From assembly GCA_964536865.1 (NCBI GenBank), contig CAZHYN010000008.1, positions 26,118 to 58,117 on the forward strand: 32,000 bases of DNA, in the 5' to 3' direction. The position numbers and the translations under genes were made by a program. Positions 3,542 to 32,000 of this stretch are shown piece after piece. Numbering within the stretch: the stretch's first letter is position 1; each line of letters starts with the position of its first letter. The stretch is from an uncultured Planctomycetia bacterium (GTDB lineage: Bacteria; Omnitrophota; Gorgyraeia; Duberdicusellales; 4484-171). The notes under the pieces were generated by a model. It did not search any database. It was given only the letters and a program-made list of their open reading frames with translations, and was not told the DNA's origin.

Positions 3542-4261
3542 TTAAATATCTTGGGAATATGTTAGATGTTTATTTATAAATTCTAAAATCTCTTTCTGTA
3601 TTTCGTGATCGATGTTATAGAATTCCAAACCCATTCCTGGATACTCCAGAGGCTGGATTTCCCTATCTGCTACCCAGATTACTCTAGTGTCAATTTCTAT
3701 AATGCCAGGTTTAGGAGATAAATTTATACGGGTTGAGAGTATCTCCCCTACAGAAAATATCTTCTTGGCTACGATAAATACTCCTATGGCGCTCAGATTC
3801 AAAACCTTTCCTTTATAGAAGAGATCTTTGGAAGAAAATTTTTGTTTATATTCAATAATGGCGTGGAAAGGAATCCTTCTAAAACGTCTTCTAAGTTTTT
3901 TCTTTAGTATTCGGTAAATGCTTTCCTCCTCTTTTAGATACCTAATTGCCTCTTCTTCGTTACTATGGAAATTAAATACTTTATTCAGTCCTACGAGAGT
4001 AAATATATTCTTAATGTGCGTAGGTACGTTACATATTTCCATCCTTCCTTTATGATTAAGAATATTTTTATATACTACAGCAAGAATGGAAATACCAATA
4101 TAGTCTATTATATTTACCTTATTAAAGTTACATACAATATTTTTAGATTTATACTTAAGAACCCAACCAGCGGTTTCTACAAAATTAGAAGCATTAATAT
4201 CAATATTTCCTGCTAAATCAAGAATAGCCACACCATCTTTATCTCTCACATTAATCGTCAT
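3542..4261 (-). CDS. STAS (anti-sigma-antagonist fold) - PilZ fusion protein
   Basis: The N-terminal part (MTINVRDKDGVAILDLAGNIDINAS...ICNVPTHIKNIFTLVGLNKVF) is STAS-like. The C-terminal part has both PilZ motifs, RRRFRR (RxxxR) and NLSAIG (NxSxxG). The track start at 4294 is a TTG. I prefer the ATG at 4261, which forms an ATGA overlap with the uppP stop. Confidence 0.75.
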   Translation of the reverse strand: MTINVRDKDGVAILDLAGNIDINASNFVETAGWVLKYKSKNIVCNFNKVNIIDYIGISILAVVYKNILNHKGRMEICNVPTHIKNIFTLVGLNKVFNFHSNEEEAIRYLKEEESIYRILKKKLRRRFRRIPFHAIIEYKQKFSSKDLFYKGKVLNLSAIGVFIVAKKIFSVGEILSTRINLSPKPGIIEIDTRVIWVADREIQPLEYPGMGLEFYNIDHEIQKEILEFINKHLTYSQDI

Positions 4262-4992
4262 AAGAATACTGTTAGCACAGCTAATACCAAACAATAATAG
4301 CCAAATTTATAAAGTTTACTCTCTTCTAAAAACTTTCTTAGAATACTTAGCGAACCTACTCCTACTAAGAAAGTTAGAATAAAGCTAAATATTAAAAGAG
4401 GACTACCCAATTTATATTGGAAAAGACTATTTGCTTCTACTAAGAAGGCTGCTAAGATTACAGGAATTGCTAGTAAGAAAGAAAAATTGAATGCCTCCCT
4501 TTTGCTAAGTCCTCTCCCCAAAGAAGCCACTATAGTTACTCCTGAGCGAGATATTCCTGGTAAGATTGCCAATCCTTGGAGAATCCCTATCAAGATACAC
4601 TCTTTAATAGAAAGTTCCTTAGCAAGTTTTTCGTCTCCTTTCTTAAAAAATAAAAGGATTAAGCTAGTAAAGAGAAAACCTATTGCGATAAGTATTTTTT
4701 CTCCAAAGTAAACTTGAGCACTGATCATTATTAGATAGGCTAATAATAAAGTAACTAAAGAAGTTATAGTCAAATTTATGAGAATTTTTCTATCTTGGAT
4801 ATAAGATATAATTTCTTTACGAAGATATACAATAATAGCTAATAGCGTAGCTAAGTGAAGATAAGTAAAAAAAGGTAGTGATTCGGATCTTACTTGAAGA
4901 ATTCTCTCAGCAAGAAATAGGTGTCCACTACTACTTATTGGAAGAAACTCTGTGATCCCTTGAATTAGACTAAAAATAAAAACTTCTTTCAC
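4258..4992 (-). CDS. uppP: undecaprenyl-diphosphate phosphatase
   Basis: 244-aa polytopic membrane protein with the BacA/UppP signatures GITEFLPISSSGHL and LPGISRSG. It has a GTG start that forms a GTGA overlap with the upstream ORF. Confidence 0.9.
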   Translation of the reverse strand: MKEVFIFSLIQGITEFLPISSSGHLFLAERILQVRSESLPFFTYLHLATLLAIIVYLRKEIISYIQDRKILINLTITSLVTLLLAYLIMISAQVYFGEKILIAIGFLFTSLILLFFKKGDEKLAKELSIKECILIGILQGLAILPGISRSGVTIVASLGRGLSKREAFNFSFLLAIPVILAAFLVEANSLFQYKLGSPLLIFSFILTFLVGVGSLSILRKFLEESKLYKFGYYCLVLAVLTVFL

Positions 4993-9178: not shown

Positions 9179-9952
9179 CTATAGCCTTACTGGTATTCCT
9201 TTCTCTTTCAAATAAGCTTTAGCTTGCTTAATAGAGTACTCTCCATAGTGGAATATTGACGCTGCTAATACAGCATCTGCTTTTCCTACTGTAAAGGCTT
9301 GGAACAGGTGTTCTAAATTACCTGCTCCTCCTGAGGCAATGACGGGGATACTTACCGCCTCTGATACTGCTTTGGTTAGTTCCAGATCATAACCTTTTTT
9401 GGTGCCATCTTTATCCATACTAGTAAGAAGAATTTCTCCCGCTCCTAAAGATTCTACTTTTTTTGCCCATTCTATAGCATCTATTCCTGTAGCCTTTGTG
9501 CCTCCATATGTATAAACTTCCCATTTTTTAGTAGAGTTTCTCTCGTCATTTGTTAACTTGGCATCTATGGCTACTACTATACATTGACTACCAAATTCTT
9601 CTGCTCCTTCTTTTATGAGTAAAGGATTTTCTACTGCAGAGGTATTTATAGAGATTTTATCTGCCCCTGACTTTAGAAGAATGCGAATGTCCTCTAGGCT
9701 ACGTATGCCCCCTCCTACAGTAAAAGGGATGAATATAGTTTGCGCTGTCCTTTCAACTATATCTAGAATGGTCTTTCTTTTTTCTAAAGTGGCAGTAATA
9801 TCTAGAAAGATTATTTCATCTGCTCCCTCTTTAGCATAAACCTCTGCTTGTTCAGCAGGATTTCCAGCGTCTTTTAAGTTCCCGAAGTTCACCCCCTTCA
9901 CTACTCTCCCGTCTTTGACATCCAGACAAGGTATAATTCTTTTAGCAAGCAT
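9179..9952 (-). CDS. hisF: imidazole glycerol phosphate synthase, cyclase subunit
   Basis: 257 aa with [24 protein letters not shown] and a (beta/alpha)8 HisF pattern. It overlaps hisH by 11 nt. Confidence 0.95.
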
Positions 9953-10661: not shown

Positions 10662-11317
10662 TTAACTGTTGCTATTCTTAAGAGCAAATCTTACCCAATC
10701 TATCCCTTTTGTAGAGAAACCGGCTAATTCTAAAGGATTTTTGTCATTTTTATATTTGTTTCTATCCTTGCAATCTGTATGGGGCTTTCTGCCCAAGGCA
10801 GATCCGCCTCTGGCGGAAAAACAATAACAGATAGCCATTAGATTGAGATAACCTTCTATTGCCTGTTTATTTTTCCCAAAGCCTTCTATTGTTTTTAATC
10901 TTCTTTCATACTGTTTTATAAGGTTTTCTAATTGATTGTTAGTATAGGGAAGGAAAGGTGTTTTTAAGTGAGCAAAGATGTTGTTTTTATATTTGATGAG
11001 ATTATTTATAAGATTGTAGATTTTCTTTTTAGATTTGAATTTTATTCTTAGCCTTTTTATCCTTTTGAGGCGAGTCTCTACTTTCTGGAAAGTATTGCTT
11101 AAGACGTAGATTCTCAAATATCTGCGCAGGGTTAAAATATCTTCGTATCTCCTTTTAAACCAGTAATCTTATCCTGAGTGGCTCTTAATTCTTTTAAAAG
11201 AGATTCTTTTTTAGGAGAGTAAGGGTAGATAAACAGAGATTTTAGTCTTCTTAGTTTCTTGGTGGGTTTAAATAATTGGTTGTGAATAGGCTGTATTCTT
11301 AAGATTCTGTCTATCAT
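10662..11317 (-). mobile_element. decayed IS remnant: two adjacent transposase C-terminal fragments
   Basis: ORFs 11317..11132 (61 aa) and 11117..10662 (151 aa, TTG-initiated only). The second contains ...FLPYTNNQLENLIKQYERRLKTIEGFG..., the 'TNNxxEN...R..K...GF' motif seen near the C-terminus of several DDE transposase families (ISL3/IS66/IS256-like). I cannot resolve the family. No N-terminal catalytic region is present. Confidence 0.5.
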
Positions 11318-13987: not shown

Positions 13988-15748
13988 TTACTCTTGAAAA
14001 TGAATGTTATCCTCTACATACCTTATAAGTTTATCTAAATCGTCTTTGTTTACCTGATAAACCCCAAAGATATATTTATTATCTACTAAAATTGCTATTC
14101 CTCTGTTTATTTTTAAATCCTTCTGAAGTCTAAATTCTTCTTCTAAAAATGAAATTCCTTCTTTAGCTTTTATAAAATCTTTAATCTTTCTATAATCTAT
14201 TCCCAATTCCTCCAAAATAGATGGCCACCAACTACTTTCTACATTTTCTAACCGCTTAGTAAGATAGGACCAAAACTTATCAGGATAGAGAACTTTTAGT
14301 GCCAATAACCTTTCTATCTCTTCCAATTCAGCCAATCCCCCTTTAGCTATAAAATTATCTTTATTCTTAGAAACTATAGGATGGAAGTTTAAAGAAAAAT
14401 TTCTTCTCTCTGCCATCGTCTTAAGCTCCTTTACCAGTTTCTGTAATCCATCATCACATAGACTAGCGAAGAGATCAATCCGTTTAGAAATTGGTTTTCT
14501 TTTTAGAAAGAGAAAGATTCCAGAAAAAGTCGTCTTTAAAAGATAAGCATCATCCTTCTTATTTAAAAATTTGGAGAATCGGGAAAAATTATTGTGTTTC
14601 TCAATGTCCTTAGAAAAAATGAAGGTGGGTAGAGTAGAAATATTATACTTCTCTACCAGTAATTTCCCCCTATGGGACCGATAACTAATCTTATCTAAGC
14701 GAACTTTCCCTAAATTTTTATTTAAAAATGCCTCGATTAAATCAGAATTGCACAAAGAACAATTAGGATCAGTAAGCAAAACTGCTTCTATAATCTGAGC
14801 CTTAACCTCTTTGCAATAAGCCTGCAGACTACCAGGATTAATACATTGAAACTGAATACCTTCTTTAGAACCGCAATCAAAAGAAGCAAAGCATTGAGGA
14901 ATAATATTTTTTAATTCGGTATCCTCTTTTAAATCCAAAGGTAATCTTTCTATCCGAAAGTTAACATTTTTTATGTCTCCCTCGGTTAAGGTCAACTCAA
15001 CTATTCTTAAATCCTTCCCTTGATACGAAGGTCTTAAAATAATAGTATCTTTCTGGCGTTGATAAGGACTGGTAGAAATAGTATACCCTGTTGAGATGAT
15101 AACCTTTATCTGAGGAAACTGATTAACTATCTCTCTATTTATGTCTTCAGGCATATTAGAAAGGAGCACAAACAAATCCACCTTTTTCTTGAAACGAAGG
15201 ATTAATCTTTTTAAAGTTTCATAGTAGGAGAGAAGTTTAATGTTTTCTTCATCAGAAGAATAAGTTAATCCCAGAATTGCAACCTTTATTTTCCCTACTT
15301 TCTTAAGTAGATAAGGTCTTACTTTAGGAAACTTTAGATTGGAAGAAATGAAGTTTATACGATAGTTAGCTAAGGTATCTTTTAAATTTTTGAGTCCAAA
15401 AGTAAACTCTCCTTCTCCTAAAAGGACAGCATCATATTTTATTTTCTCCATTGCTTTAAGGTAAACTCGAGTTCTTTTCTTATCCAAATCCAGATTCACA
15501 CTATGTTCATCCAAAGGTGCTCCTGCAGTAAAGTTACCTGCATCTAAAAGAAGAATATTTTTCTCCCGCTGGCGCAACTTCTTTATCAAAAAAGCACGGC
15601 GAGCTATTCCCCCTCCCACGCTACCAGGAGAGTCTCCAAGAGGGTAAATAGTAGCATAAGTATTTCCTGTATAGAGGATAGTTATCTTCTCTCCATAGAG
15701 AAGGAAAGGAGAGAGAATAGAAAATAGAAAAATCAAAATCCATCGCAT
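13988..15748 (-). CDS. secreted multidomain protein: degenerate 5'-nucleotidase/metallophosphoesterase-like N-domain plus thioredoxin-fold domains
   Basis: 586 aa with a signal peptide (MRWILIFLFSILSPFLLYG). The N-domain is colinear with UshA/SoxB-type phosphoesterases, but the metal-ligand motifs are replaced (see finding). A CxxC (NCSLCN ... TLPTFIF) thioredoxin-like segment and a DsbA-like C-terminal segment follow. Confidence 0.55.
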   Translation of the reverse strand: MRWILIFLFSILSPFLLYGEKITILYTGNTYATIYPLGDSPGSVGGGIARRAFLIKKLRQREKNILLLDAGNFTAGAPLDEHSVNLDLDKKRTRVYLKAMEKIKYDAVLLGEGEFTFGLKNLKDTLANYRINFISSNLKFPKVRPYLLKKVGKIKVAILGLTYSSDEENIKLLSYYETLKRLILRFKKKVDLFVLLSNMPEDINREIVNQFPQIKVIISTGYTISTSPYQRQKDTIILRPSYQGKDLRIVELTLTEGDIKNVNFRIERLPLDLKEDTELKNIIPQCFASFDCGSKEGIQFQCINPGSLQAYCKEVKAQIIEAVLLTDPNCSLCNSDLIEAFLNKNLGKVRLDKISYRSHRGKLLVEKYNISTLPTFIFSKDIEKHNNFSRFSKFLNKKDDAYLLKTTFSGIFLFLKRKPISKRIDLFASLCDDGLQKLVKELKTMAERRNFSLNFHPIVSKNKDNFIAKGGLAELEEIERLLALKVLYPDKFWSYLTKRLENVESSWWPSILEELGIDYRKIKDFIKAKEGISFLEEEFRLQKDLKINRGIAILVDNKYIFGVYQVNKDDLDKLIRYVEDNIHFQE

Positions 15749-21545: not shown

Positions 21546-22619
21546 CTATTTGATAGCGAGCTTCTGGTAAATACGGTTATGCATATCTATTTCTTTGAAA
21601 ATTAATCTTGCCTCAAAAACTAAAGTTTCTGATTTACCGATTATTAGATAACCCCCTTCCTTAAGAGAACGATAAAACTTATCTACAATTTGCTCTTGTA
21701 AAGCCTTAGTAAAATAGATAAATACATTCCTACAGGTTATTATATCAACATCTTCAAGATAAGGGGAACCTATCAAATCTAAATAACGAAATTCTACCAT
21801 CTTCTTTATTATTGGTTTTATATAATATTTATCTCCTTTTATCACAAAATACTTCTCCAGAAACTCTCTCTTTACATTCTTAGTTCGTATATAATCATAG
21901 GTACCCTCCTCTGCTTCCTTTAAGCAATCTCGATCGATATCGGTAGCATAAATTTTAAAAGGAACACCCTCCTTGTTTATTTCTCTCATCATTATCGCTA
22001 AAGAATAAGCTTCTTCTCCTTTAGCACAGCCAGCACTCCATAAATTTAAAGAAACGCCCTTATCTTTATAAGAAGCTATTAACTCCTTCAAGAGTCTTTC
22101 AATAGATATCCATACAGAATAATCTCTAAAAAACTCAGAAACATTTATGGTAAGGACTTCAAATAACTTCTCATACTCTTTAGGATCAGTAGCTAAAACA
22201 TGAAGATATTCGCTATAAGATTTTGATTTTGTCGCTGAAACTCTTAAGGCAATTCTTCTCTTTAGGATACCTCGATGATATAAACTAAAGTCTACTCCTC
22301 GGTCTTGCTTTATCTTATTAAGGAGATTATCAAACTCTCTTTCTCTATCGTAGTCAGAAGGATGAGGAAGATTTTTACTTACCTTCTCTATCGCCTCATT
22401 AATCGCACCGAATATCTCTTTAGAATACTTCTTTATTAATTCTCTCTCGATTTCCTGATAAGAAGGGCTGGCATCATCAGCATAGACAGGAGGAAATTTA
22501 TTTACAAGATAACTCAACATTGCTTTCTTACATTTTTCACATGTACAGATATCAAATTTTAGATTAAGATGTCTATCTAAGAAGTATTTTAAAAGTCCTT
22601 CCAAGATATTTTTTTTCAT
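21546..22619 (-). CDS. ComFB-domain / CheR-type protein-glutamate methyltransferase fusion
   Basis: 357 aa. The N-terminal ~60 aa have the ComFB pattern (DICTCEKCKKAMLSYLVNKFPPVY). These are followed by a CheR N-domain (VDFSLYHRGILKRRIALRV) and a SAM-binding domain (LWSAGCAKGEEAYSLAIMM, ITCRNVFIYF). Confidence 0.8.
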   Translation of the reverse strand: MKKNILEGLLKYFLDRHLNLKFDICTCEKCKKAMLSYLVNKFPPVYADDASPSYQEIERELIKKYSKEIFGAINEAIEKVSKNLPHPSDYDREREFDNLLNKIKQDRGVDFSLYHRGILKRRIALRVSATKSKSYSEYLHVLATDPKEYEKLFEVLTINVSEFFRDYSVWISIERLLKELIASYKDKGVSLNLWSAGCAKGEEAYSLAIMMREINKEGVPFKIYATDIDRDCLKEAEEGTYDYIRTKNVKREFLEKYFVIKGDKYYIKPIIKKMVEFRYLDLIGSPYLEDVDIITCRNVFIYFTKALQEQIVDKFYRSLKEGGYLIIGKSETLVFEARLIFKEIDMHNRIYQKLAIK

Positions 22620-22629
22620 CTCTTAAAAA

Positions 22630-23721
22630 TCACTTCTGCCAAATACCTTCTATATTCTCTCCACAAAATTTGCATCTTCCCTCTTTAGTAATATTATTTT
22701 CTAGAATAGAATAACCCACACGATGAATAATTATTTTACCACATTTAGGACAGTATGTTGATTCCTCTTTTATTCCTGGCACATTTCCAATATAGACATA
22801 TTTTAATCCTACTTTTTTAGCAATTTGATAAGCATTTTTCAAAGTAGTAATGGGTGTAGGAGGTAAATTTTTTAGTTTAAACATAGGGTAGAAACGAGTA
22901 AAATGTAAAGGCACATCATCCCCTAAATTTTCTTTAATCCAAACACACGTCTTTTTTATCATCTGAGGAGAATCATTAAGTGTAGGAATAATCAGATTGG
23001 TTATTTCAAGATGCACGCCTGCTTTTTTTATTGTTTTAAGCGTTTCTAAAATTGGCGAAAGATGTGCACCATAACCAATTTTATTGTAAAACTCTTCAGA
23101 AAAAGCTTTTAAATCTACATTAACAAAATCCATATATTTTAAAAGTTCTTCTAAGGGTTTTTTATTTATATATCCACAGGTATGCATTCCCACAAAAAGA
23201 CCTTCTTTTTTGGCTAATTTAGCGGTCTCAAGCATAAATTCATAAGATATTGTAGGTTCTGTATAAGTAAAAACGATTGAGGGGCAGTTATATTTTTTTG
23301 CCAATTTTATTAAATCTTTGCTGGTTAAATAATAATTCTCTGTTTCATCAGGAGCTTTCTGAGAGATATGCCAGTTCTGGCAAAAAATACAGCGCATATT
23401 GCATCCCGAAAATGCTATAGATAAAGCTTTGCTACCTGGAAGAACATGAAAGAAAGGCTTTTTCTCAATGGGATCCACAGCAACGGCAACAGGATTATTA
23501 TAAGCAAGAGTGTAGAGAATGCCACCTTTATTTATACGCACTCTACAAAAACCTCTGTGATCAGGTAAAATAAGGCATTTTCTAGGGCAAAGAAGACATT
23601 GCACACTTCCATTACTTCTTTCTTCCCAAAATAAAGCTTTTTTGGTCTGAGAAAATACGTTAGAAAAAATTAAAACCGCCTCAATTAAGAAAAAAGAAAT
23701 CAATAAAAAATTCTTCTTCAT
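22630..23721 (-). CDS. AmmeMemoRadiSam-system-type radical SAM enzyme with an N-terminal hydrophobic anchor or signal
   Basis: 363 aa. VQCLLCPRKCLILPDHRGFCRVRINKGG...DPIEKKPFFHVLPGS...GCNMRCIFCQNWHISQ plus the C-terminal zinc ribbon CPKCG...CKFCG match that family as I remember it. The first ~25 aa (MKKNFLLISFFLIEAVLIFSNVFSQ) are signal/TM-like. A TAATG overlap joins it to the upstream gene. Confidence 0.8.
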   Translation of the reverse strand: MKKNFLLISFFLIEAVLIFSNVFSQTKKALFWEERSNGSVQCLLCPRKCLILPDHRGFCRVRINKGGILYTLAYNNPVAVAVDPIEKKPFFHVLPGSKALSIAFSGCNMRCIFCQNWHISQKAPDETENYYLTSKDLIKLAKKYNCPSIVFTYTEPTISYEFMLETAKLAKKEGLFVGMHTCGYINKKPLEELLKYMDFVNVDLKAFSEEFYNKIGYGAHLSPILETLKTIKKAGVHLEITNLIIPTLNDSPQMIKKTCVWIKENLGDDVPLHFTRFYPMFKLKNLPPTPITTLKNAYQIAKKVGLKYVYIGNVPGIKEESTYCPKCGKIIIHRVGYSILENNITKEGRCKFCGENIEGIWQK

Positions 23722-26033
23722 TATTTAGATTTTAAAGCCAAGAATAAAAAAATTGCTGTGGCGATTAGCAAGACTCCTATAAAATTACAAGACTTAATTA
23801 TACCATACAAAGGAAAAAATACTATAGAAATACTTATCCCACCTAAAGAACCCCCTGCTAAATCCAATCCATAAAGAATGCCTGCCCTAGAATAGGATTC
23901 TCTATTCTTAGAATACATTTGATTTACCAGGGAAAAGAAAGAACCTCCTAAGAAACCAAAAGAAAAAGGAAAAGTAAAGAAGAAAAACTGATAATTCAAG
24001 GAGGGGAAACAGGAGAAAAACTTTAAAATTAAAGGGGTAAATACAAAAAAAACTCCACAAACAAAACATATACTCACTAAGGAAACAGAAACTACCTTTT
24101 CTTTCTTAAGAAAAGAAAAGAAATTAGCACCCAGAGCTAATCCTAACATAAATAATGCAGTGATTAATCCTACTTTATGGTAAACATAACCATAAATTAT
24201 CTGAAACCCTACTATAAAGATAAATACACTTGAAAGCCCCCCAAACCCTATATTGAACATAGCTAAAGCAAACAACCAATTTCTTCTAAAAAAATAAAAT
24301 ACAAACATTAAGACTAACCAAAAAATCAAATAGAAAGAGAAATTTATCTTTGATAAAGAAGAAAATAATTTATCCCACCAAGATCCAAAATGAGAAGTAA
24401 AATAACTTATCCCATAAAAGTAGGCAATTGGTTCAAAATCATAATTTATCTTTACCTGCTTATGATGAGTCAATATATCCTTTATATAATTTAAGTGCCA
24501 AGGGATCAATCTACTAAAGATATAGTACTCATTGAAGTATCGAGCAGAGATATTCATCTTTTCAAAACGGGATGATAGCGTCTCAGGAGAATCTATCAGA
24601 GGAGAATCACTAACTATAAATCTTGCTTTTTCACCAGGAATTATAATGATATTGGAAAACACCTTCTTCAAAGTGTGATATAGACATCCCTGTAAGTCTC
24701 TTAATTCCTTAGAAAGATAACTTTCTTTGGATGGCAAAGAAAAAGAAAATACTCCTCCAGGATTAAGAAGAAACTTAATTCTCTTGAAAAATTCCCAAGT
24801 ATAAAATCTATTTAAATAGAGAGTAAGAGGTAGGGGTGTATTAAGAAGAATGACATCGAATTTCTTTCCTCTATAGAGATTTAAAAAATTTCTCACTTCA
24901 CGATTAATAACCTTAACTCTGGGAGAGTTTAAAGCCGCTTTATCCTGAAAAGGTAAATATTTCTTCACCAGCTCTATTAATTTAGGGTCTAATTCCAGAT
25001 AGTAAACTTCTTCTACAGGATACTTAAGGATTTCGTATAATATCCCACTAACTCCTCCTCCTATAACCATAACTCTTCTAATATCTTTCTTTTGAAGAAA
25101 AGTAAAGTGAACTATTTCTTCTGAATGAATCCTTAAAGGGAAGGTAGAACTTAAAATCCCATTTTCAAATAGACTGTAAAGAGAATCGCTTTTAGTAAGA
25201 ATAAGATCTGCATATACAGAAGATGCTTTATCTACTACATAAAAACCTTTCCATTCTCTACTGAGAAGAAATCTCTCGATCTTATTGGCTTTTAAACCAA
25301 TTATTAAGAAAAGGATAATCAGAATAAAACTTATCATCCTCACTCCATACGTCAAGTATTTTCTTTTTTTAAAAAGGAACGTTTTCGGAGAATCTTTATC
25401 TAAGTCTATAGATCCAACTTTATTTTGAAAGGAAGTAGCCTTAGCTTCTGTCTTCTCTCTCATAAGAAGAGAAAAAATTAAAACAATTAAAATCAGAGCG
25501 AAACTTACAAAATATAAATTTTTAAAAGCGGAAAACAAATAAACGAATAAAAAAGAAAAGGTCAGACCACCTAACATATCTCCTAGTGCGTCACACGCAT
25601 AAATCTTACCTACACTGTTGTCTCTTTTAATTGCAGAATAAAGTCTTATACTGAAAGGAAAAAGAAATCCATTAACTAAGGAAAAGGGGGCTAGTATAAG
25701 TAAAGAAGATGAAAACATCATTTTAGGAGAAACAATTTCTCCCGGATACAATCTTAAAAATATACGTAAGTTTCTTATTAAAAAAATCTCTACCAGACCA
25801 AGTAAAGAAAAAAACTCAAGCAAGAGAAAAAATAGAAAGAAATTTTCTTTTATTTTTGAAGAAAAATGTGTAAACAGAAAACTACCTATACCTCCAAAAA
25901 AAAGCCAACTCGAGAGTAGGACTCCTGCAGAAAGCTCATTACCGTAGAAAGTTATGAGAAGTTCTCTTAGAAATACACTCTGAGAGAATACCGAAAAAAA
26001 ACCAATAAATATTACCAGAAAGAGGAAAAACAT
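23721..26033 (-). CDS. fused MFS-like membrane domain / spermidine-synthase-like protein
   Basis: 770 aa with many TM helices at both ends. The central Rossmann methyl/aminopropyl-transferase-like domain reads VMVIGGGVSGILYEIL...YYLELDPKLIEL...FDVILLNTP...LNPGGVFSF. Confidence 0.8.
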   Translation of the reverse strand: MFFLFLVIFIGFFSVFSQSVFLRELLITFYGNELSAGVLLSSWLFFGGIGSFLFTHFSSKIKENFFLFFLLLEFFSLLGLVEIFLIRNLRIFLRLYPGEIVSPKMMFSSSLLILAPFSLVNGFLFPFSIRLYSAIKRDNSVGKIYACDALGDMLGGLTFSFLFVYLFSAFKNLYFVSFALILIVLIFSLLMREKTEAKATSFQNKVGSIDLDKDSPKTFLFKKRKYLTYGVRMISFILIILFLIIGLKANKIERFLLSREWKGFYVVDKASSVYADLILTKSDSLYSLFENGILSSTFPLRIHSEEIVHFTFLQKKDIRRVMVIGGGVSGILYEILKYPVEEVYYLELDPKLIELVKKYLPFQDKAALNSPRVKVINREVRNFLNLYRGKKFDVILLNTPLPLTLYLNRFYTWEFFKRIKFLLNPGGVFSFSLPSKESYLSKELRDLQGCLYHTLKKVFSNIIIIPGEKARFIVSDSPLIDSPETLSSRFEKMNISARYFNEYYIFSRLIPWHLNYIKDILTHHKQVKINYDFEPIAYFYGISYFTSHFGSWWDKLFSSLSKINFSFYLIFWLVLMFVFYFFRRNWLFALAMFNIGFGGLSSVFIFIVGFQIIYGYVYHKVGLITALFMLGLALGANFFSFLKKEKVVSVSLVSICFVCGVFFVFTPLILKFFSCFPSLNYQFFFFTFPFSFGFLGGSFFSLVNQMYSKNRESYSRAGILYGLDLAGGSLGGISISIVFFPLYGIIKSCNFIGVLLIATAIFLFLALKSK

Positions 26034-26073: not shown

Positions 26074-26661
26074 TCAATCGCTTTTGCTCTCTTTCAGAAA
26101 TGTATAAGTGATAAGTTCGAGCTTGATTTTTTGGCGGGGTAAAATATTTTTGTCTCGCTCAATCCATACACCATCTATAAGAACTGCTCGCTCCAAGTGA
26201 AAAATTTTTTTAACAAAAGATAAAAGATTTCTGTACTCGCCTTCAAAAGTAAGAGTAATTCCTAAAGAAACAACCTTTAAGTTATCTTTAGAGGACTTTT
26301 TCTTTAAACTATTTTCCACATCAAAAGGAGAACTCTTCGGCTTATCCTGACAGTAAATCTCTACATTCTCTAAGTTCTCTTCTTCAGCGATTAGAGCCAA
26401 GTCTTTAATCAATCCCAGAGGTTTTATCTCATTAATAGGAATTACCTTCTCCATCTTAGCCATTTCCTTCTGAAGCTTAGCAATTTCCTTCTTTAACTTA
26501 TTCAAATTTTTCTCCATCTTCCTCGCTTGAGAAATCTTTTTCTCTATTCCTTTTATCTCTTTTTTAAGAAAGATATTTATTCTTAAAGAAACGAAAAAAA
26601 GTATCAGGATGCAAACAAAAAGAGAAATTAAAATGGTAATGATTACTTTAAATCCTTTCAT
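26074..26661 (-). CDS. PilO/GspM-like pilus assembly protein
   Basis: 195 aa with an N-terminal TM helix, a coiled coil (KKEIAKLQKEMAKMEK) and a C-terminal ferredoxin-like segment (ITLTFEGEYRNLLSFVKKIFHLERAVLI). It sits directly after pilM/N. Confidence 0.6.
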   Translation of the reverse strand: MKGFKVIITILISLFVCILILFFVSLRINIFLKKEIKGIEKKISQARKMEKNLNKLKKEIAKLQKEMAKMEKVIPINEIKPLGLIKDLALIAEEENLENVEIYCQDKPKSSPFDVENSLKKKSSKDNLKVVSLGITLTFEGEYRNLLSFVKKIFHLERAVLIDGVWIERDKNILPRQKIKLELITYTFLKESKSD

Positions 26662-26662
26662 T

Positions 26663-28453
26663 CTACTGATTCACTATCTCTGCCTCTAAACTAAAAAATC
26701 TCAACTTGGGTTCAGTCAAAATTATCTCTTTAGAACCTTCCCACTTAGGAGCGAGTTTCTCCAATTCAGGAGGAGTAAATTTTACATTAGTAAAAACACT
26801 CTCTTTTTCTAATTTCTCTTTAAAGAGGCCAGCTAAATCTATCGCCTCTTGGTATGTAGAAAAACAACCCCCTTTTATCTTTAATATATATCTTTTTAGT
26901 TCTTTTTCTTTTTTCTTTTTAGAAGAACGTCCCTTTCTACGAATTTGTATTCCAATCTCTTTTTTAGGAAATATGGAAAGTTGGGTTAAAAATATTTTTT
27001 GAGGAGTGATTAAGGAAATCTTTTCTAAAATGGAATAGATATCCAACCGCTCTCTCATTAACTCTTTAACCTTTAAGGCCCTCTCATCAATCACTTTTTT
27101 CCTTTTCTTTAATTCCTCTAAGGTTTTTACTGGGGCGGCGATTCTTTTCTTCTCTATTTTTAAGTTAGCGAGGTTTTTCCTCAGCACTTTATTGCTAATA
27201 GCGATATTAAGCCAGAGAAGGAATACAACACAGAAACTAATCAGAACCGAAGTAATAGCTGTTAATTCTTTCTTAATAATAATCTCTCGTTCTTTGATTT
27301 CTCGAGGAAGAAAGTTAACTGCTTCCTTTCTCCTCCTCAATATAGGAATACTTAAAGCTATACTGGCGGCATTAGTAAATAGAGGAGAGATTCTCTCTAT
27401 GTAGGAAAGTTGAAATTTATCTAACATTTCCATATCTTTAAGAGGAGAAAAAATTTCGCATCTCCCTCCCAAATTTTGACTCAAACAAGAAACCAACCCT
27501 TTAATCCCTGCACCCCCTCCTAAAAAGAAAATATCCTCTATTCTTTCTCTTCTCTGTTCACTGTAATAAACAAGAGTTCTCCTTATCTCCTGAGTAATCT
27601 TTTCAATCTCCGTCTGCCATAGCACTCTTAATTCTAGAAGATTAACCTCTTCTTGTGGCTTTCTTGCTAAGGAGGCCTCATATTTTTGGCGCATTATCTC
27701 TTCCGCTACTTTTACCCTATCATTGAGGTCCACATCTACTTCCGGTACGCCCTCTCTCATTATTAACTCCTCTCCGTTATGAAACTCCACATTTAAGGAA
27801 GAACTAATCTTTGAAGTAATATCTTTTAGACCAAATTTAACACTCCGGTAGATATAGAGAGAACCCTTCTCTAAAATGGTAAACTTGGTATATTCATATC
27901 CTATATCTACGAAAATAGTATTTTTTTGATGCACGTCGGAACTATGGGGAAAGCTATAGATGAGAGTGTAGCAACTAGGAGAAATTATTGAGGGATAAAC
28001 CCCCAAGGCATTAAAAATATCAAGAATATTCTCTACAAACTCACTTTCACCTTTCACTATTGCTACTTCACAGAATGATGTTTTCCCTTTAGAAAAGGTC
28101 CTTAAAGGAGTATATTGGAATATACTGTCAGGGCCAGGAGGGGGAACCATCTTCCTTTTTGCCTCTACTTTCACCGAAATCTCCAATTCTTTCCTACTCA
28201 TCTTAGGAAGCTCGGTAGTCATCACTGAGACTAAGAAAGAAGGAATATTGACTCCTACAAGGCTCTTCTTTAGAGTAGAAGGCGATATTTTTGAAGTAAT
28301 CTGTTTTAGAAAAATTTCTTTATCGATTTTTCCATATCTTTCTTTAAGATAAGGAGTGGGAAAGAAAAAAAAATTTGATAAACGGTTTTTCTTTTCTAAC
28401 TCTACAACCTTAACTGAACTAGTACCGATATCAATACCTATGAGGGGAAACAT
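26663..28453 (-). CDS. PilM (actin-like ATPase fold) - PilN fusion
   Basis: 596 aa. The N-terminus IGIDIGTSSVKVVELEKK is typical of PilM. An internal TM helix (ITSVLISFCVVFLLWLNIAI) is followed by a PilN-like periplasmic part. Confidence 0.75.
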   Translation of the reverse strand: MFPLIGIDIGTSSVKVVELEKKNRLSNFFFFPTPYLKERYGKIDKEIFLKQITSKISPSTLKKSLVGVNIPSFLVSVMTTELPKMSRKELEISVKVEAKRKMVPPPGPDSIFQYTPLRTFSKGKTSFCEVAIVKGESEFVENILDIFNALGVYPSIISPSCYTLIYSFPHSSDVHQKNTIFVDIGYEYTKFTILEKGSLYIYRSVKFGLKDITSKISSSLNVEFHNGEELIMREGVPEVDVDLNDRVKVAEEIMRQKYEASLARKPQEEVNLLELRVLWQTEIEKITQEIRRTLVYYSEQRRERIEDIFFLGGGAGIKGLVSCLSQNLGGRCEIFSPLKDMEMLDKFQLSYIERISPLFTNAASIALSIPILRRRKEAVNFLPREIKEREIIIKKELTAITSVLISFCVVFLLWLNIAISNKVLRKNLANLKIEKKRIAAPVKTLEELKKRKKVIDERALKVKELMRERLDIYSILEKISLITPQKIFLTQLSIFPKKEIGIQIRRKGRSSKKKKEKELKRYILKIKGGCFSTYQEAIDLAGLFKEKLEKESVFTNVKFTPPELEKLAPKWEGSKEIILTEPKLRFFSLEAEIVNQ

Positions 28454-28462
28454 CCTTAAAAA

Positions 28463-29671
28463 CTATCCTCCTACTGCCTGAATCATCTTAAACAATGGCA
28501 AAAACATAGAAAGAGCAATAAGACCTACTACTGCTCCCATAAATACAATCATCATTGGTTCAAAGAGAGCAAAAAGCCTTCTTATAGTAGAAGTAACTTC
28601 TTTATCATAAAAGTTAGATACCTTGGTTAAAGTTTGAGCTAAAGCTCCAGATTGCTCTCCTACAGCAATCATTCTTATCACCATAGGAGGAAACTCTCCT
28701 GTAGCTTCTAAAGCTGTGGCTAGCTTTTCTCCTACATTTACCGCATCCTTTGCTTGAGCTACAGCACGTTCTAACCGAAGATTTCCACAGGTTCCTTTGG
28801 CCACCTCCAAAGCAGTAAGTAAATCTATTCCCGCTTTGAACCCTAAACAAAAAGTATGAGCAAATCTAGATAATGCTATTTTTCTTAAAAGAATACCAAA
28901 AATAGGAATCTTCAATTTCAAACTATCGATAATATACTTACCTTTCTCCCTTTTATTAAAAAATTTATATCCTCCAAAGAAAAAACCTCCAATAATCAAA
29001 AAAATCCACCAAAACCTTCTTACTAAATGGCTTAACCCCAGAACAATTTGAGTAGGCAAGGGCAAAGCAGTACTTAACTGTTCAAATATAGGTTCAAATT
29101 TAGGAATTACAACTCCAGTAAGTAATGCTAAAACACCTATCATTACCACAAAAAGAATGATAGGATAAATAGACGCTTCTTTTATTTTACCTGTTAAATC
29201 CATCTGCCATTCTAAAACTCCTGCAAGCTCAGTAAGAACTTGAGATAGCTTACCTGTTGCTTCCCCAGCTCCTACAATAGCGGTATACAACTTGGAGAAA
29301 GTATGAGGGTAAATAGAAAGTGCATCCTGTAAAGAAGTGCCGCTCTCTACGCGAAGGCGAATATCAGAGATCACTCTTTTACTCCCCTCACTTTTTGCAT
29401 CTTTACTAAGATTATCCAGAGCTTGAAGAAGAGGTACCCCAGCATCAATGAGAGTAGCTAACTGAATAGTTATATCCAAAACCTCTTTAGAACTAAGCTT
29501 ACCAAAAGTACCTTTAGAAAGTCTTTCTCCTTCTCTTGAAAGTTTAAAATCAGTAAGAAAATACCCTAAATTAGAGACTTTGTTGGCTAAATCTACTTCA
29601 TCCAAGGCAGAGATTACTCCCTTAACTATTTTTCCTCGCTCATCTCTAGCAGTGTAGAAATATGATTGCAT
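28463..29671 (-). CDS. type II secretion system F / PilC platform protein
   Basis: 402 aa with two T2SSF-type repeats and three TM segments, the typical GspF/PilC length and pattern. Confidence 0.88.
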   Translation of the reverse strand: MQSYFYTARDERGKIVKGVISALDEVDLANKVSNLGYFLTDFKLSREGERLSKGTFGKLSSKEVLDITIQLATLIDAGVPLLQALDNLSKDAKSEGSKRVISDIRLRVESGTSLQDALSIYPHTFSKLYTAIVGAGEATGKLSQVLTELAGVLEWQMDLTGKIKEASIYPIILFVVMIGVLALLTGVVIPKFEPIFEQLSTALPLPTQIVLGLSHLVRRFWWIFLIIGGFFFGGYKFFNKREKGKYIIDSLKLKIPIFGILLRKIALSRFAHTFCLGFKAGIDLLTALEVAKGTCGNLRLERAVAQAKDAVNVGEKLATALEATGEFPPMVIRMIAVGEQSGALAQTLTKVSNFYDKEVTSTIRRLFALFEPMMIVFMGAVVGLIALSMFLPLFKMIQAVGG

Positions 29672-29689: not shown

Positions 29690-30145
29690 TTAGGATTCAA
29701 ACCAAGAGTCAGACACTATACCTCCCTTATTATCGTCATCTTTGCCGTCCCCATCCGCATCTAGAATTCCATTAACGGTAACGTTAATCTGACGAAAGGC
29801 AATAACTTGAGAGCGATTGGTATCAAATATCTGACCATCACCTCTTAAAATTCTCCTATCTGCCCCTCCTGAGTGTATTCGGAACCGATATCTTAACTGA
29901 TAGCTATCACTAGGGTCAGGGTCTAAATCAGTAAACCAAGAAGATGTTCCTGATAGATTTACATTATTTAGGACTTCTACTTTTGCTCTCTCAATCCCTG
30001 CCTGGGCAAGATAAAAAGCTATTAGATTCTCTTGATGAAGAGAATGTATTTGAAGTACTGGTTCCCAGAGATTCCAAAGACCTATCCCTATAATAGCTAC
30101 TAAAGCTATCATAAATACAGTAAATATTAAAGCCTGCGTATTCAT
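29690..30145 (-). CDS. PilX/GspK-like minor pseudopilin (no Glu5)
   Basis: 151 aa with a hydrophobic N-terminus lacking E5, the AFYLAQAGIERAKVEV motif typical of PilX_N/GspK, and an acidic DADGDGKDDDNKG loop near the C-terminus. Confidence 0.55.
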   Translation of the reverse strand: MNTQALIFTVFMIALVAIIGIGLWNLWEPVLQIHSLHQENLIAFYLAQAGIERAKVEVLNNVNLSGTSSWFTDLDPDPSDSYQLRYRFRIHSGGADRRILRGDGQIFDTNRSQVIAFRQINVTVNGILDADGDGKDDDNKGGIVSDSWFES

Positions 30146-30684
30146 TAAGGGTTTCTGGCTCTAACCATTGTCCTTAAAGAAAAGTTTCTATTACCTCTCC
30201 CTTCACTTCTGGTAGGGAATGGTCTTAGAGTAAGAAAGATGGTAACTAATCCACTGGAGTTAGTAAAAATATCTCCGTTTCCAGGATTATCCACAACAAA
30301 TATAGAAAGCTTACTCTTAGAACCCCAAAAAAACCAGATTTTTTCCCTTCTTATTAACTCATTAGTAAATACGCCTCCTACTCTATCACGTTGATATCTT
30401 ATTCGTGTCCCACTTCGATCAACAAACTCAATCCTCTTACCATCTAAGCTAGGAGGCCAAAAACCGGAAGTCTGAATGGTAGAGGCACGTGCAGATCGTA
30501 TCTCGTTACTTATCATCTCAAGTGCCCAACGTCCTTCTTGAACTAAAATTGTATTAGCACTCTGTTTTCCCCATGCTTCCTGAGAAGAAATAACTAAACT
30601 AGCTACTGCGCCCATAATTAATCCAAATACAGCAATACCTACTAATACTTCGACTAAGGTAAATGCTTTTCTCTTATTATTCAT
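30145..30684 (-). CDS. prepilin-type N-terminal domain protein (GspJ/PilW-like minor pseudopilin)
   Basis: 179 aa. N-terminus MNNKRKA|FTLVEVLVGIAVFGLIMG, followed by QEGRWALEMISNEIRSA. Confidence 0.7.
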   Translation of the reverse strand: MNNKRKAFTLVEVLVGIAVFGLIMGAVASLVISSQEAWGKQSANTILVQEGRWALEMISNEIRSARASTIQTSGFWPPSLDGKRIEFVDRSGTRIRYQRDRVGGVFTNELIRREKIWFFWGSKSKLSIFVVDNPGNGDIFTNSSGLVTIFLTLRPFPTRSEGRGNRNFSLRTMVRARNP

Positions 30685-30692
30685 GATTTTTA

Positions 30693-31133
30693 TTATTGGA
30701 AATTAGCTATTAGAGTATCAACCTTAAAAGACCTTTCCCCGCTTTCTCCCTGCCAAAAGACAGTAACCTCTACCTTAGCTAAATTATTAAATCCTAAGTA
30801 AGGACACGTCACCTCTACCTCTCTATCAAAACTTGAGAATCCACTTACTGAGGATCTAATTTCATCAGGGGGCACTACTTTACAGTTAGGAGGACAAGGA
30901 ACCCCAGGATTAGGAGTAGTAAACAATTCTGGATGTGCGCTTCCACTGGACAAGTCTTCCAACTTTTCCTGGACAAGAAAACAGGCAATAGCGTGCATCT
31001 TCGTCTTATGCATATATCTGTATCCTTGAGAAAATACGCTCATCATAAAAAGTACTATAGTTAAGATGAGAGTGATAGAAATTGCTATTTCTATTAAAGT
31101 AAAATATTTTCTCCTGTTAATGGAATATAACAT
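30693..31133 (-). CDS. prepilin-type N-terminal domain protein (GspI/PilV-like minor pseudopilin)
   Basis: 146 aa. N-terminus ...RRKY|FTLIEIAISITLILTIVLF. Confidence 0.65.
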   Translation of the reverse strand: MLYSINRRKYFTLIEIAISITLILTIVLFMMSVFSQGYRYMHKTKMHAIACFLVQEKLEDLSSGSAHPELFTTPNPGVPCPPNCKVVPPDEIRSSVSGFSSFDREVEVTCPYLGFNNLAKVEVTVFWQGESGERSFKVDTLIANFQ

Positions 31134-31812
31134 TTTTACATAACCACACTAAAGTATCTAAAAAAACCCTCACTGTGTTTTTCATCCATCTTCTACTTTT
31201 GATATAATTAGCAATTGGGGGGCTTAGATCATAATACAAATCTATCAATCTTTTCCCTATCTCACTGGACCCCAAGTACTCATCTCTGAGGGTATACAGC
31301 ACTAACAACTTTTCTCTATCTCTAACTTCTAAAGAGTTATATACTACGGTAGCAATAAAACAAGAAGAAGAAGAAGTATGAAAACCAACATACCCTGTAT
31401 CCTCAAAGATATCAAGACGGGAACTTCTAGACCCTAGTGTAAGAACAATTGAATCTTGAATAGCAGGATACACACTTGCTGTACCTGAAGGGTAATGGAA
31501 CTCTATTCTGTTAGGAGAAGTTTGGATATTTACACTTAATCTTACAGGATTGATCCTTGAAGGAAGTGGGTTATTATTTATATCAGTAATAGTATATGTA
31601 TTTTGGGTACGATCAAAAGTAACTTTATAATCCTTGTGTTGGGTTACTGCTAATTCTCTTGCCCATTGAAGATCGGCCACTAATCGATTAACCTCGCTTT
31701 TTAAACGTCTACTTTCAATCATAGTGAAAGATACACCAACCACAGCAGTAAAAATACCAATAATAAGGATAACCACAATCATTTCAATGAGAGTAAAACT
31801 ATTTCTTCTCAT
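31117..31812 (-). CDS. GspH/FimT-like minor pseudopilin fused to a C-terminal 'CFIAT...' module
   Basis: 231 aa. N-terminus MRRNS|FTLIEMIVVILIIGIFTAV, followed by LVADLQWARELAV (GspH-like). After an SSSS linker, residues 151-231 read CFIATVVYNS...LRDEYL...LIDLYYDLSPPIANYIK... Confidence 0.7.
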   Translation of the reverse strand: MRRNSFTLIEMIVVILIIGIFTAVVGVSFTMIESRRLKSEVNRLVADLQWARELAVTQHKDYKVTFDRTQNTYTITDINNNPLPSRINPVRLSVNIQTSPNRIEFHYPSGTASVYPAIQDSIVLTLGSRSSRLDIFEDTGYVGFHTSSSSCFIATVVYNSLEVRDREKLLVLYTLRDEYLGSSEIGKRLIDLYYDLSPPIANYIKSRRWMKNTVRVFLDTLVWLCKNVIFH

Positions 31813-31825
31813 CTTTTCTACTTAA

Positions 31826-31854
31826 ATAATAACTTAAAAAAGGAACTTTTGCAA
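31826..31854 (-). promoter_or_regulatory. candidate promoter for the pseudopilin operon
   Basis: On the minus strand: TTGCAA (31854..31849), a 17-nt spacer, then TATTAT (31831..31826). The -10 element ends only 13 nt before the ATG, which would imply a very short leader. Confidence 0.3.
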
Positions 31855-31936
31855 ATCAAATTTGACCACTGGGTAGGAAATACTAAAGGAAAGATTAATA
31901 AATACCCTCCCACCACTCCCTTTTAGAAAAACGGAA

Positions 31937-32000
31937 TTATTTCAGAGAAAGAAGCATTTCTACCCGACTGTTAGTAGAATCGTAACGAACACTACCAGCA
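31937..32000 (-). CDS. 3' end of an upstream CDS cut by the window edge
   Basis: The minus frame is open from the edge to TAA at 31939..31937 (...AGSVRYDSTNSRVEMLLSLK*). It is too short to identify. By position it could be another (major?) pilin gene. Confidence 0.25.
   Translation of the reverse strand, partial: AGSVRYDSTNSRVEMLLSLK

Follow-up and report, generated by a model that had tools for sequence, protein, structure and literature searches.

A minor pilin gene with a C-terminal CFI-box domain in an Omnitrophota type IV filament locus

Why should a minor pilin gene in a type IV filament locus end in a domain that is found at the C-terminus of many unrelated proteins, and what could that domain do on a pilin? 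The question is raised by a 32,000-nucleotide stretch of DNA from an uncultured bacterium of the Omnitrophota (assembly GCA_964536865.1, contig CAZHYN010000008.1, positions 26,118–58,117), the whole of which is referred to here as the window. A minus-strand open reading frame (ORF) at 31117–31812 of the window was found, from the ORF list and the sequence, to encode a protein of 231 amino acids followed by a stop codon. An earlier annotation made without database searches, here called the sequence-only reading, had described it as a GspH/FimT-like protein joined by a serine linker to a C-terminal module said to occur on many unrelated proteins, and residues 151–231 read in the ORF exactly as it had quoted them. 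The gene and its parts are as follows:

31117–31812, minus strand: bimodular minor pilin gene, complete (ORF list and sequence); the same or a near-identical gene is present in contigs L001, L002 and L006 and in 12 cluster members
31798–31812, minus strand: class III (prepilin) leader MRRNS (PF07963, TIGR02532), with cleavage predicted before F6
31375–31797, minus strand: pilin module, residues 6–146, a hydrophobic alpha-1 helix and a GspH/FimU/ComGD-like beta domain (PF12019) ending in FEDTGYVGFHT
31363–31374, minus strand: (TCT)4 repeat encoding the S147–S150 linker, read directly from the sequence
31120–31362, minus strand: CFI-box-CTERM domain, residues 151–231, starting at the invariant Cys151 (NCBIfam profile; NF041770 match to residues 151–222, 31147–31362)

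Profile analysis of the C-terminal module revealed it to be the CFI-box-CTERM domain of NCBIfam (NF041770, CFI_box_CTERM), which put a name to the module pointed out in the sequence-only reading. The protein scored 64.8 bits against a cutoff of 40, across model positions 1–69 of 69, and the module scanned alone scored 68 bits; the match stopped 9 residues short of the stop codon, which agreed with a C-terminal location. Ten alignment positions were invariant in the CFI-box family (the C, A and T of the CFIAT box, an R-D pair, an L, a G, a Y and an S-P pair), and all ten were present here, as C151, A154, T155, R176, D177, L180, G186, Y193, S197 and P198. Several near-invariant positions were altered, with VVYN in place of AAYG, LRD in place of FRD and Thr in place of a Pro near the end. 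In an AlphaFold2 (AF2) model made from a mixed alignment, the module had a predicted local distance difference test (pLDDT) score of 80–94 and consisted of a short helix (residues 152–158) and helices at 163–180, 184–205 and 208–229; it is predicted to be a compact four-helix domain of ~9 kDa without a membrane segment. Its grand average of hydropathy (GRAVY) was -0.13 and its highest 19-residue Kyte-Doolittle mean was 1.05, indicating that it contains no transmembrane (TM) segment. The protein ended in WLCKNVIFH and had no basic tail, and the TM helix and basic tail of C-terminal sorting signals were thus both missing. This, and the occurrence of CFI-boxes on cytoplasmic-looking proteins, weakens the likeness to an anchoring or sorting tag drawn in the sequence-only reading.

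Pfam held no model for the CFI-box, and no match recurred when this module and 47 family modules were scanned with Pfam. A profile search against PDB sequences returned 0 matches at E values up to 10. A link to peptidase S74 was rejected at the sequence level, an hhalign comparison of the CFI profile with the chaperone domain of the phage K1F endosialidase giving 1.2% probability; additionally, no S74 structure was among the Foldseek PDB matches of the module and no family member matched Peptidase_S74 in Pfam. A second Cys, C225 (31138–31140), was located near the end of the last helix and was kept in four of the six GspH-CFI orthologue groups (as in WLCKNV, YACKKI and WSCERI). A second Cys also appeared sporadically elsewhere in the CFI-box family. 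C225 might form a periplasmic disulfide with the invariant Cys151.

The N-terminal half was that of a prepilin. It read MRRNS followed by FTLIEMIVVILIIGIFTAVV, with Glu at +5 of the mature protein, and showed the short basic leader, the FTLxE-type motif with Glu +5 and the hydrophobic helix of ~20 residues by which class III signals are recognised. PF07963 (N_methyl) scored 25.1 bits against a gathering score of 21.2 and TIGR02532 scored 19.4 bits against a cutoff of 16.3; one variant of the protein was already labelled as a prepilin-type protein by NCBI. The GspH family PF12019 was a marginal pass (21.1 bits, gathering score 21). Of the equivalog models, TIGR01708 for GspH (49.8 bits, cutoff 80) and NF040982 for ComGD (54.4 bits, cutoff 70) both scored below their cutoffs, and the relationship to GspH and ComGD is weak. 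The pilin part of the AF2 model (residues 30–148) was of low confidence, with a pLDDT of 40–70, and Foldseek with the full-length model gave weak pilin matches only, the best being XcpH (9a1f_Q, E=0.12) and EpsH (2qv8, E=1.8). Two homologues that lack a CFI-box, P0010 (170 amino acids) and P0298 (163 amino acids), aligned along residues 5–142 of the protein and stopped 3–6 residues past the ETGYA strand. By this measure the pilin domain reaches its end at about residue 146, and the CFI-box is a genuine addition to it.

The same ORF was present in ENA, Logan, JGI and NCBI assemblies, where it occurred as 12 protein variants at ≥90% identity, and a contig of the GTDB genome 'Candidatus Omnitrophota bacterium B7_G16' carried the gene at 99% identity. 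The sequence-only reading had itself considered that a frameshift or assembly error at the repeat could have joined two ORFs artificially, and a low-complexity repeat does lie exactly at the junction. There is practically no chance that such an error, or a chimeric join, produced the fusion by linking a pilin ORF to an unrelated one. The ORF was continuous in at least 12 variants from these independent assemblies, both repeat lengths described below kept the frame, and orthologues at 32–44% identity had the same fusion with non-repetitive linkers; an artefact is refuted by this cross-assembly and orthologue evidence.

The orthologues that kept the fusion and its place in the operon were P0002 (41–44% identity, depending on the aligner), P0294/P0295 (39–40%), P0296 (34%) and P0297 (32%). 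For P0295, NF041770 was confirmed above its cutoff, and its gene (39% identity) occupied the corresponding operon position, with genes for three minor pilins, PilC, a PilM-domain protein and PilO after it. An insertion of +3 or +5 residues in the first loop of the module was common to all GspH-CFI orthologues and was in none of the ~390 other modules compared. The spacing between the Cys and the RD pair was 25 or 27 in the GspH-CFI group only, as against 22 in nearly all other modules (21–23 in four). This shared derived insertion indicates a single old fusion. The sequence-only reading had taken the serine repeat to fit a recent fusion, which did not hold. The orthologue linkers differed from one another (SSSS, PPGGW, SGGGAY, RSNYV and PGGGGG), and a stretch rich in Gly, Ser, Pro or Thr before the Cys was common across the whole CFI-box family; the Ser repeat is therefore not a sign of a recent join. 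By these alignments the fusion is old, single and retained within the lineage. The gene for the CFI-less relative P0298 likewise follows a major pilin gene and fills this operon slot, so the module is an accessory that was either gained by one lineage or lost by another.

Analysis of the linker confirmed that its serines are encoded by a perfect trinucleotide repeat. The junction on the coding strand read CAT ACT TCT TCT TCT TCT TGT, with T146 at 31377–31375 and C151 at 31362–31360, and in the CTT phase the repeat formed a perfect 15-nt (CTT)5 tract at 31362–31376. This tract was the sole perfect trinucleotide repeat of ≥4 units in the window, where 0.26 were expected under a first-order model. 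A contig of a GTDB Omnitrophota metagenome-assembled genome (L006) had (TCT)3 at this point, compared to (TCT)4 in the window and two other assemblies, with otherwise near-identical flanks. Among the 12 cluster variants, seven had a shorter linker (six Ser3 and one Pro-Ser-Ser) and five had Ser4, and linker lengths differed by one unit only among the variants compared. Both lengths were found on identical amino acid backgrounds (P0406 and P0411; P0408 and P0410), which suggests recurrent slippage or recombination. The in-frame length variation that the repeat had been expected to allow was thus found, Ser3 and Ser4 alleles coexisting, and the length of the tether is naturally polymorphic.

The sequence-only reading had implied that the module was unique among pilins. 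This part was not upheld, as an architecture search revealed NF041770 above its cutoff on pilins of at least five kinds, the GspH/ComGD-like group described here included. GspG-like pilins were represented by P0354 and P0299, a PilV-like pilin by P0007 and its close relative P0012, and two unclassified kinds by P0401 and by P0004 (whose relative P0335 was not scanned separately). The gene for P0299 comes from another genome of the Omnitrophota and lies 4 kb away from the secretin cluster there; P0354, which has both a CFI-box and a TM helix, sits in a minor-pilin-like cluster, and P0004 in a pilus cluster with a ComGC-like pilin. There were 0 pilins among the 262 best-scoring family members from searches with the module alone, and pilins are accordingly a small minority of CFI-box carriers. 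As far as predicted architectures go, this recurrence shows that the pairing of CFI-box and pilin has been repeatedly selected, though it is rare. No paper describing a CFI-box on pilins was found.

The gene lay in an operon for a type IV filament, the parts of which in or at the edge of the window, starting from the major pilin, are as follows (the slash marks the predicted cleavage site):

31937–32000, minus strand: 3′-end of the major GspG-like pilin gene at the window edge, ending SRVEMLLSLK and a stop codon; the full gene is at 9376–9876 of L001 (MKKG/FTLVE, 166 amino acids)
31117–31133, minus strand: 17-nt stretch shared by the end of the CFI-box coding sequence and the start of the next minor pilin gene (ORF list); the overlapping ATG keeps the prepilin motif RRKY/FTLIE
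30693–31133, minus strand: minor pilin 2, 146 amino acids, GspI-position; FTLIE motif read directly, no Pfam match
30145–30684, minus strand: minor pilin 3, 179 amino acids, GspJ-position (PF07963, 32.8 bits)
29690–30145, minus strand: minor pilin 4, 151 amino acids, putatively GspK-position from its place in the order (kept in L001 and L017) and its hydrophobic N-terminus without Glu5
28463–29671, minus strand: platform protein PilC/GspF (PF00482 T2SSF, 188 bits)
26663–28453, minus strand: long PilM-domain protein, 596 amino acids, with PilM_2 at about residues 6–235 (PF11104 PilM_2, 81 bits)
26074–26661, minus strand: PilO (PF04350, 40.9 bits)

A 17.7-kb ENA contig (L001) extended the locus upstream and encoded a prepilin peptidase (Peptidase_A24), a MerR-type gene, a secretin in two ORFs, a T2SSE/MshEN ATPase and the major pilin, followed by the CFI-box pilin. 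The latter is thus encoded together with the prepilin peptidase, ATPase, platform protein and secretin of a type IV filament machine. The gene order was major pilin, CFI-box pilin, three minor pilins, PilC, PilM-domain protein and PilO, and this succession of major pilin, H, I, J and K places the CFI-box pilin in the GspH/FimU slot. GspK-type pilins lack Glu5, as does minor pilin 4. The long C-terminal part of the PilM-domain protein, which has a hydrophobic segment, may be PilN-like, judging from its sequence. The 17-nt overlap with the next pilin gene, which had been reported in the sequence-only reading, was present, and the next ORF begins MLYSINRRKYFTLIE within the final codons of the CFI-box pilin gene; in the orthologous operon L017 the corresponding overlap was 29 nt. 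Additionally, the major pilin gene and the CFI-box pilin gene are 124 nt apart, and the gap contained a terminator-like hairpin (31888–31911, minus strand) and a promoter-like site (31826–31855, minus strand), both of which were within chance expectation for an AT-rich region. Such a putative arrangement could lower minor-pilin expression.

The CFI-box family at large was searched with a profile of 21 modules and clustered at 50% identity. This revealed 31,183 clusters at E values up to 1e-3, of which 23,094 reached 1e-10, and it bore out that the module recurs at the C-terminus of many unrelated bacterial and archaeal proteins. Carriers included Dehalococcoidia, Methanosarcinales, MSBL1 archaea, Omnitrophota, Thermodesulfobacteriota, Aquificaceae and Gammaproteobacteria, among the last the cultured Pseudoalteromonas, as well as others. 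The module was always C-terminal, either at the extreme C-terminus or separated by a spacer of ~15 residues from a TM helix that leads into an Arg-rich tail; this second form accounted for more than half of the proteins examined. A TM helix and basic tail after the module would place it outside the membrane and adjoining it. Typical members had a Sec-type signal peptide and surface-protein repeats, the passenger domains were of surface-protein type (Flg_new_2, CARDB, Big_2, fn3, LTD, cohesin, RCC1, peptidase S8 and YD repeats), and there were several CFI-box paralogues per genome. The residue before the invariant Cys was Gly in 137 and Pro in 52 of 291 sequences. Family modules were rather hydrophobic, with a median GRAVY of +0.27. 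With relatedness between the sequences ignored, the net charge of TM-tailed modules was mostly acidic (median -1), modules without a TM helix included a distinct basic group (+4 to +8), and nine of the ten pilin-borne modules scored, all except P0007 (-1), had net charges of +2 to +8. This split could reflect complementary docking or lipid binding.

No shared neighbour gene that might encode a partner enzyme was found around CFI-box genes in Desulfuromonas, Dehalococcoidia, an MSBL1 archaeon and Pseudoalteromonas, and CFI-box tails matched no known CTERM sorting-signal model, the best being GPS-CTERM with 14.5 bits against a cutoff of 28. Some architectures of the family were found to be products of gene calling. 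The 'giant proteins with two internal CFI-boxes' (P0152–P0155) appear to be neighbouring genes run together, the second half of P0152 having its own lipoprotein signal. Some 'stand-alone' CFI-box proteins of 90–135 amino acids were truncated calls within much longer open frames (L015, 4762–6402), such as the 133-amino acid P0149 inside a frame of 546 amino acids. Statistics of CFI-box architectures drawn from automatic calls are therefore unreliable. Pseudoalteromonas viridis (CP072426.1; L020, 876–8597) encoded a 198-amino acid protein with a signal peptide, YD repeats, a CFI-box and a TM tail, 13 nt downstream of the gene for a 2,370-amino acid RHS/YD-shell protein; the species is in culture, and the domain could be studied in it experimentally. 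The Clostridioides phage-plasmid pCD1602_4 (CP069348.1; L023, 4176–5231), whose host is cultivable, contained an unannotated ORF of 351 amino acids with an N-terminal zinc ribbon, a TPR-like helical region and a C-terminal CFI-box of the 'CYIATAVYGSYD' variant (tblastn E=4e-13), and without a signal peptide.

What the CFI-box would do on this pilin can be approached from the architecture, its conservation and the operon context described above, from which we infer how the protein would be processed, incorporated and displayed and what it would bind. The architecture and the pilin role, as read from profiles and gene order, are very probably right. The fuller account that we tentatively prefer, with a little less than even confidence, is that the gene encodes a genuine modular minor pilin, which occupies the GspH position in a type IV filament or type II secretion system (T2SS)-like machine of Omnitrophota and carries the CFI-box near the tip as an association module. 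The prepilin peptidase would cleave the leader, and the pilin module, together with the three minor pilins encoded downstream, would become part of the priming complex, taking the GspH/FimU position just below the tip trimer and linking that trimer to the major pilin. The CFI-box would stay attached, outside the filament near its tip, on a flexible Ser tether whose length would be shifted by one residue through slippage in the (TCT)n tract. Its work there would be one of association: by binding other CFI-boxes, or a conserved ligand common to the family, it would link the filament with a surface or with envelope proteins that bear a CFI tag. The account draws on the soluble helical character of the module, on the surface-type passenger domains of the family and the place outside and beside the membrane implied by the TM-tailed members, on the recurrence of the CFI-box among pilins, on the published design of modular pilins and on the host attachment proposed for Omnitrophota type 4a pili. 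Taken as a claim of its own, display of the module with a function in association is possible but doubtful. A bolder version, in which the CFI-box is a universal self- or cross-associating tag and other envelope proteins offer their CFI-boxes as docking sites to the basic, TM-less module of the pilin, is improbable. If it were true, CFI-tagged proteins would be collected by the part of the filament that is assembled first and either transported outward or shown at the tip, which would amount to cohesin-dockerin-like cargo selection or tip decoration by a type IV filament or T2SS-like machine. A related reading is that the CFI-box may be a new Cys-dependent self-processing module.

Several observations weigh against display near the tip as an association module. 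The pilin part is weakly GspH-like, remaining below the equivalog cutoffs, and its AF2 model is poor. The leader residue at -1 (31798–31800) is Ser, the canonical residue being Gly, and prepilin peptidase cleavage is usually impaired by a non-Gly residue at this position. Ser was at -1 in all five CFI-bearing GspH lineages (RRNS/F, RKYS/F, SKNS/F, KKKS/I and NRQS/F), and Gly was at -1 in both CFI-less relatives and in the major pilin (MKKG/F). The next two minor pilins have Tyr (31090–31133) and Ala (30640–30684) at -1. Processing of these minor pilins may be unusual. Four of the pilin kinds that carry a CFI-box (P0354, P0401, P0007/P0012 and P0335/P0004; loci L024, L005 and L004) have a TM helix and basic tail after it. 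With an anchor at either end, a pilin has to be cut before it can be drawn from the membrane into a filament, and these proteins fit a cleaved module better than a displayed one. The CFI-box was also found on cytoplasmic-looking proteins (the C. difficile phage-plasmid protein, the Mrr_cat protein P0389 and TPR proteins), so that a purely extracellular docking role cannot be general. No other CFI-box gene was present in the 32-kb window or the flanks examined, the module had no structural analogue in the PDB (best Foldseek E ~9), and a literature search found no experiment or paper on the CFI-box.

The main rival account takes up the doubly anchored pilins and sees the CFI-box as a removable C-terminal pro-domain for sorting, maturation or intramolecular chaperoning, which is severed at the invariant Cys or beside it, whether by its own catalysis with the Cys as nucleophile or through an enzyme dedicated to the task. 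What functions as a pilin would in that case be an ordinary GspH of ~146 residues, and the module would be active only in folding, targeting or oligomerisation. It is in keeping with a cut at this point that the first residue of the module is the invariant Cys, usually after a flexible Gly/Ser/Pro linker and with Gly at -1 in 137 of 291 sequences; that the module is always C-terminal; that it occurs on both sides of the membrane; and that pilins with a CFI-box, TM helix and basic tail would need cleavage to polymerise. The very high conservation across Bacteria and Archaea, with invariant polar T, R, D, Y and S residues, looks more like intrinsic chemistry than a binding surface. The sole structural lead, a phage model in the BFVD annotated as 'intramolecular chaperone auto-processing domain containing protein' (probability 0.97, TM-score 0.63, root-mean-square deviation 2.3 Å over 73 columns), points the same way, and a pilin joined to peptidase S74 is a known modular-pilin architecture according to the text of PMC8179133. 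The BFVD match was, however, non-significant at E=0.86, and S74 was found neither by Foldseek against the PDB, nor in Pfam, nor by hhalign against the K1F domain. Moreover, the Cys has no conserved His or Lys partner, Pro at -1 (52 of 291) is unfavourable for an acyl shift, and the lineage studied here has long kept the module without a TM helix that would need removal. We consider a pro-domain unlikely.

The CFI-box could instead be a membrane- or envelope-associating helical bundle that holds the pilin by its C-terminal end at the inner membrane or the assembly platform, which would make the protein a subunit that is held back or forms part of the base, or one that regulates or stops the growth of the filament, and not a subunit that travels near the tip. 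The rather hydrophobic character of the family modules, most of which stand just before a TM anchor, speaks for this, as do the cytoplasmic-looking carriers, which fit membrane targeting from either side. Weak support also comes from the basic charge of the pilin-borne modules (nine of ten), which would suit anionic lipid head-groups and differs from the mostly acidic TM-anchored modules, although these charge statistics ignore sequence relatedness. The module of this pilin is itself not hydrophobic, however (the GRAVY and Kyte-Doolittle values are given above), and gene order groups it with the priming minor pilins, which are incorporated first. Retention at the membrane is to our minds distinctly unlikely. 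The account of a modular minor pilin bearing an association module near the filament tip is the one we retain, at the tentative strength given above.

The CFI-box is among the largest uncharacterised C-terminal domain families measured (31,183 clusters), and the main value of the pilin fusions is as a handle on it. They limit what its role can be, in that the domain can work outside the cytoplasm, without its usual anchor and tethered to a filament subunit, and in that the anchored pilin versions would have to be cut before polymerising. Modular pilins are a way for simple filaments to gain new functions, and the protein described here is a candidate tip-proximal effector. Omnitrophota are ultra-small, probably host-dependent bacteria. 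Their type 4a pili have been proposed to mediate host attachment (PMC10066038).

The remainder of the window encoded housekeeping and cyclic di-GMP (c-di-GMP)-related genes. Directly after PilO was a 770-amino acid protein with a central spermine/spermidine-synthase-like domain (23721–26033, minus strand), followed by a radical SAM protein with a C-terminal rubredoxin-like motif (22630–23721, minus strand), an arrangement that was not conserved in L017. A CheR methyltransferase with an N-terminal ComFB domain was encoded at 21546–22619 (minus strand); ComFB has recently been described as a cyclic dinucleotide (c-di-NMP) receptor family. Parts linked to c-di-GMP were plentiful, with two PilZ-domain genes (111–467 and 3542–4294) and the MshEN domain of the L001 pilus ATPase. 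A 586-amino acid ORF (13988–15748, minus strand) had no Pfam match, and a 151-amino acid fragment (10662–11117, minus strand) resembled the end of an IS66-family transposase.

Comparison with known systems separates what is already known, namely that the CFI-box domain is catalogued and the modular-pilin design published, from what is new: the explicit pairing of CFI-box and pilin, its recurrence across pilin kinds, its age in this lineage and the linker polymorphism. Like the LPXTG/sortase, PEP-CTERM/exosortase and PGF-CTERM/archaeosortase signals, the CFI-box is C-terminal on many unrelated surface proteins and is in many of them followed by a terminal TM helix and Arg-rich tail; unlike them it is a folded domain of ~70 residues and not a short motif, and on this pilin it has no TM helix or basic tail. 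With the phage tail-spike chaperone/peptidase S74 domain it shares a C-terminal location, a largely helical structure and a first residue that is a possible nucleophile, whereas the candidate nucleophile is a Cys and not a Ser-Lys dyad, the domain is about half the size and there is no sequence or profile similarity. Compared to typical NF041770 proteins, the pilin has the full-length match, the invariant residues and a C-terminal module after a low-complexity linker, but its N-terminus is a pilin, it has no TM tail and it contains a lineage-specific loop insertion of 3 residues. Compared to GspH, FimU, XcpH and ComGD, it is encoded right after the major pilin and before three minor pilins, has an N-terminal helix with Glu5 and matches XcpH weakly; the canonical GspH ends at its last beta strand, whereas this protein has 85 extra residues and Ser in place of Gly at -1.

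The closest likeness is to the modular pilins, in which the filament presents a module that a short linker attaches to one of its pilins. The text of the survey that described them (PMC8179133) covers >1,200 proteins in 264 architectures, pilin-S74 fusions included, with PilB (vWA) and PilC (lectin) of Streptococcus sanguinis as examples; the combination with a CFI-box was not met in the passages of that text consulted, Dataset S1 of the survey not being covered. The protein described here has the architecture of modular pilins sensu Raynaud et al. 2021, as set out in the text of that work. As in the proteins presented there, a short linker connects a class III signal and pilin module with a C-terminal domain whose kind is not confined to pili, the minor pilin gene lies inside a pilus operon, and display near the tip would be expected by analogy. 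It differs from the examples in that text in that its module is a 9-kDa helical domain and not a recognisable adhesin, lectin or peptidase, and in that the carrier is a GspH-position pilin of a diderm, secretin-using machine.

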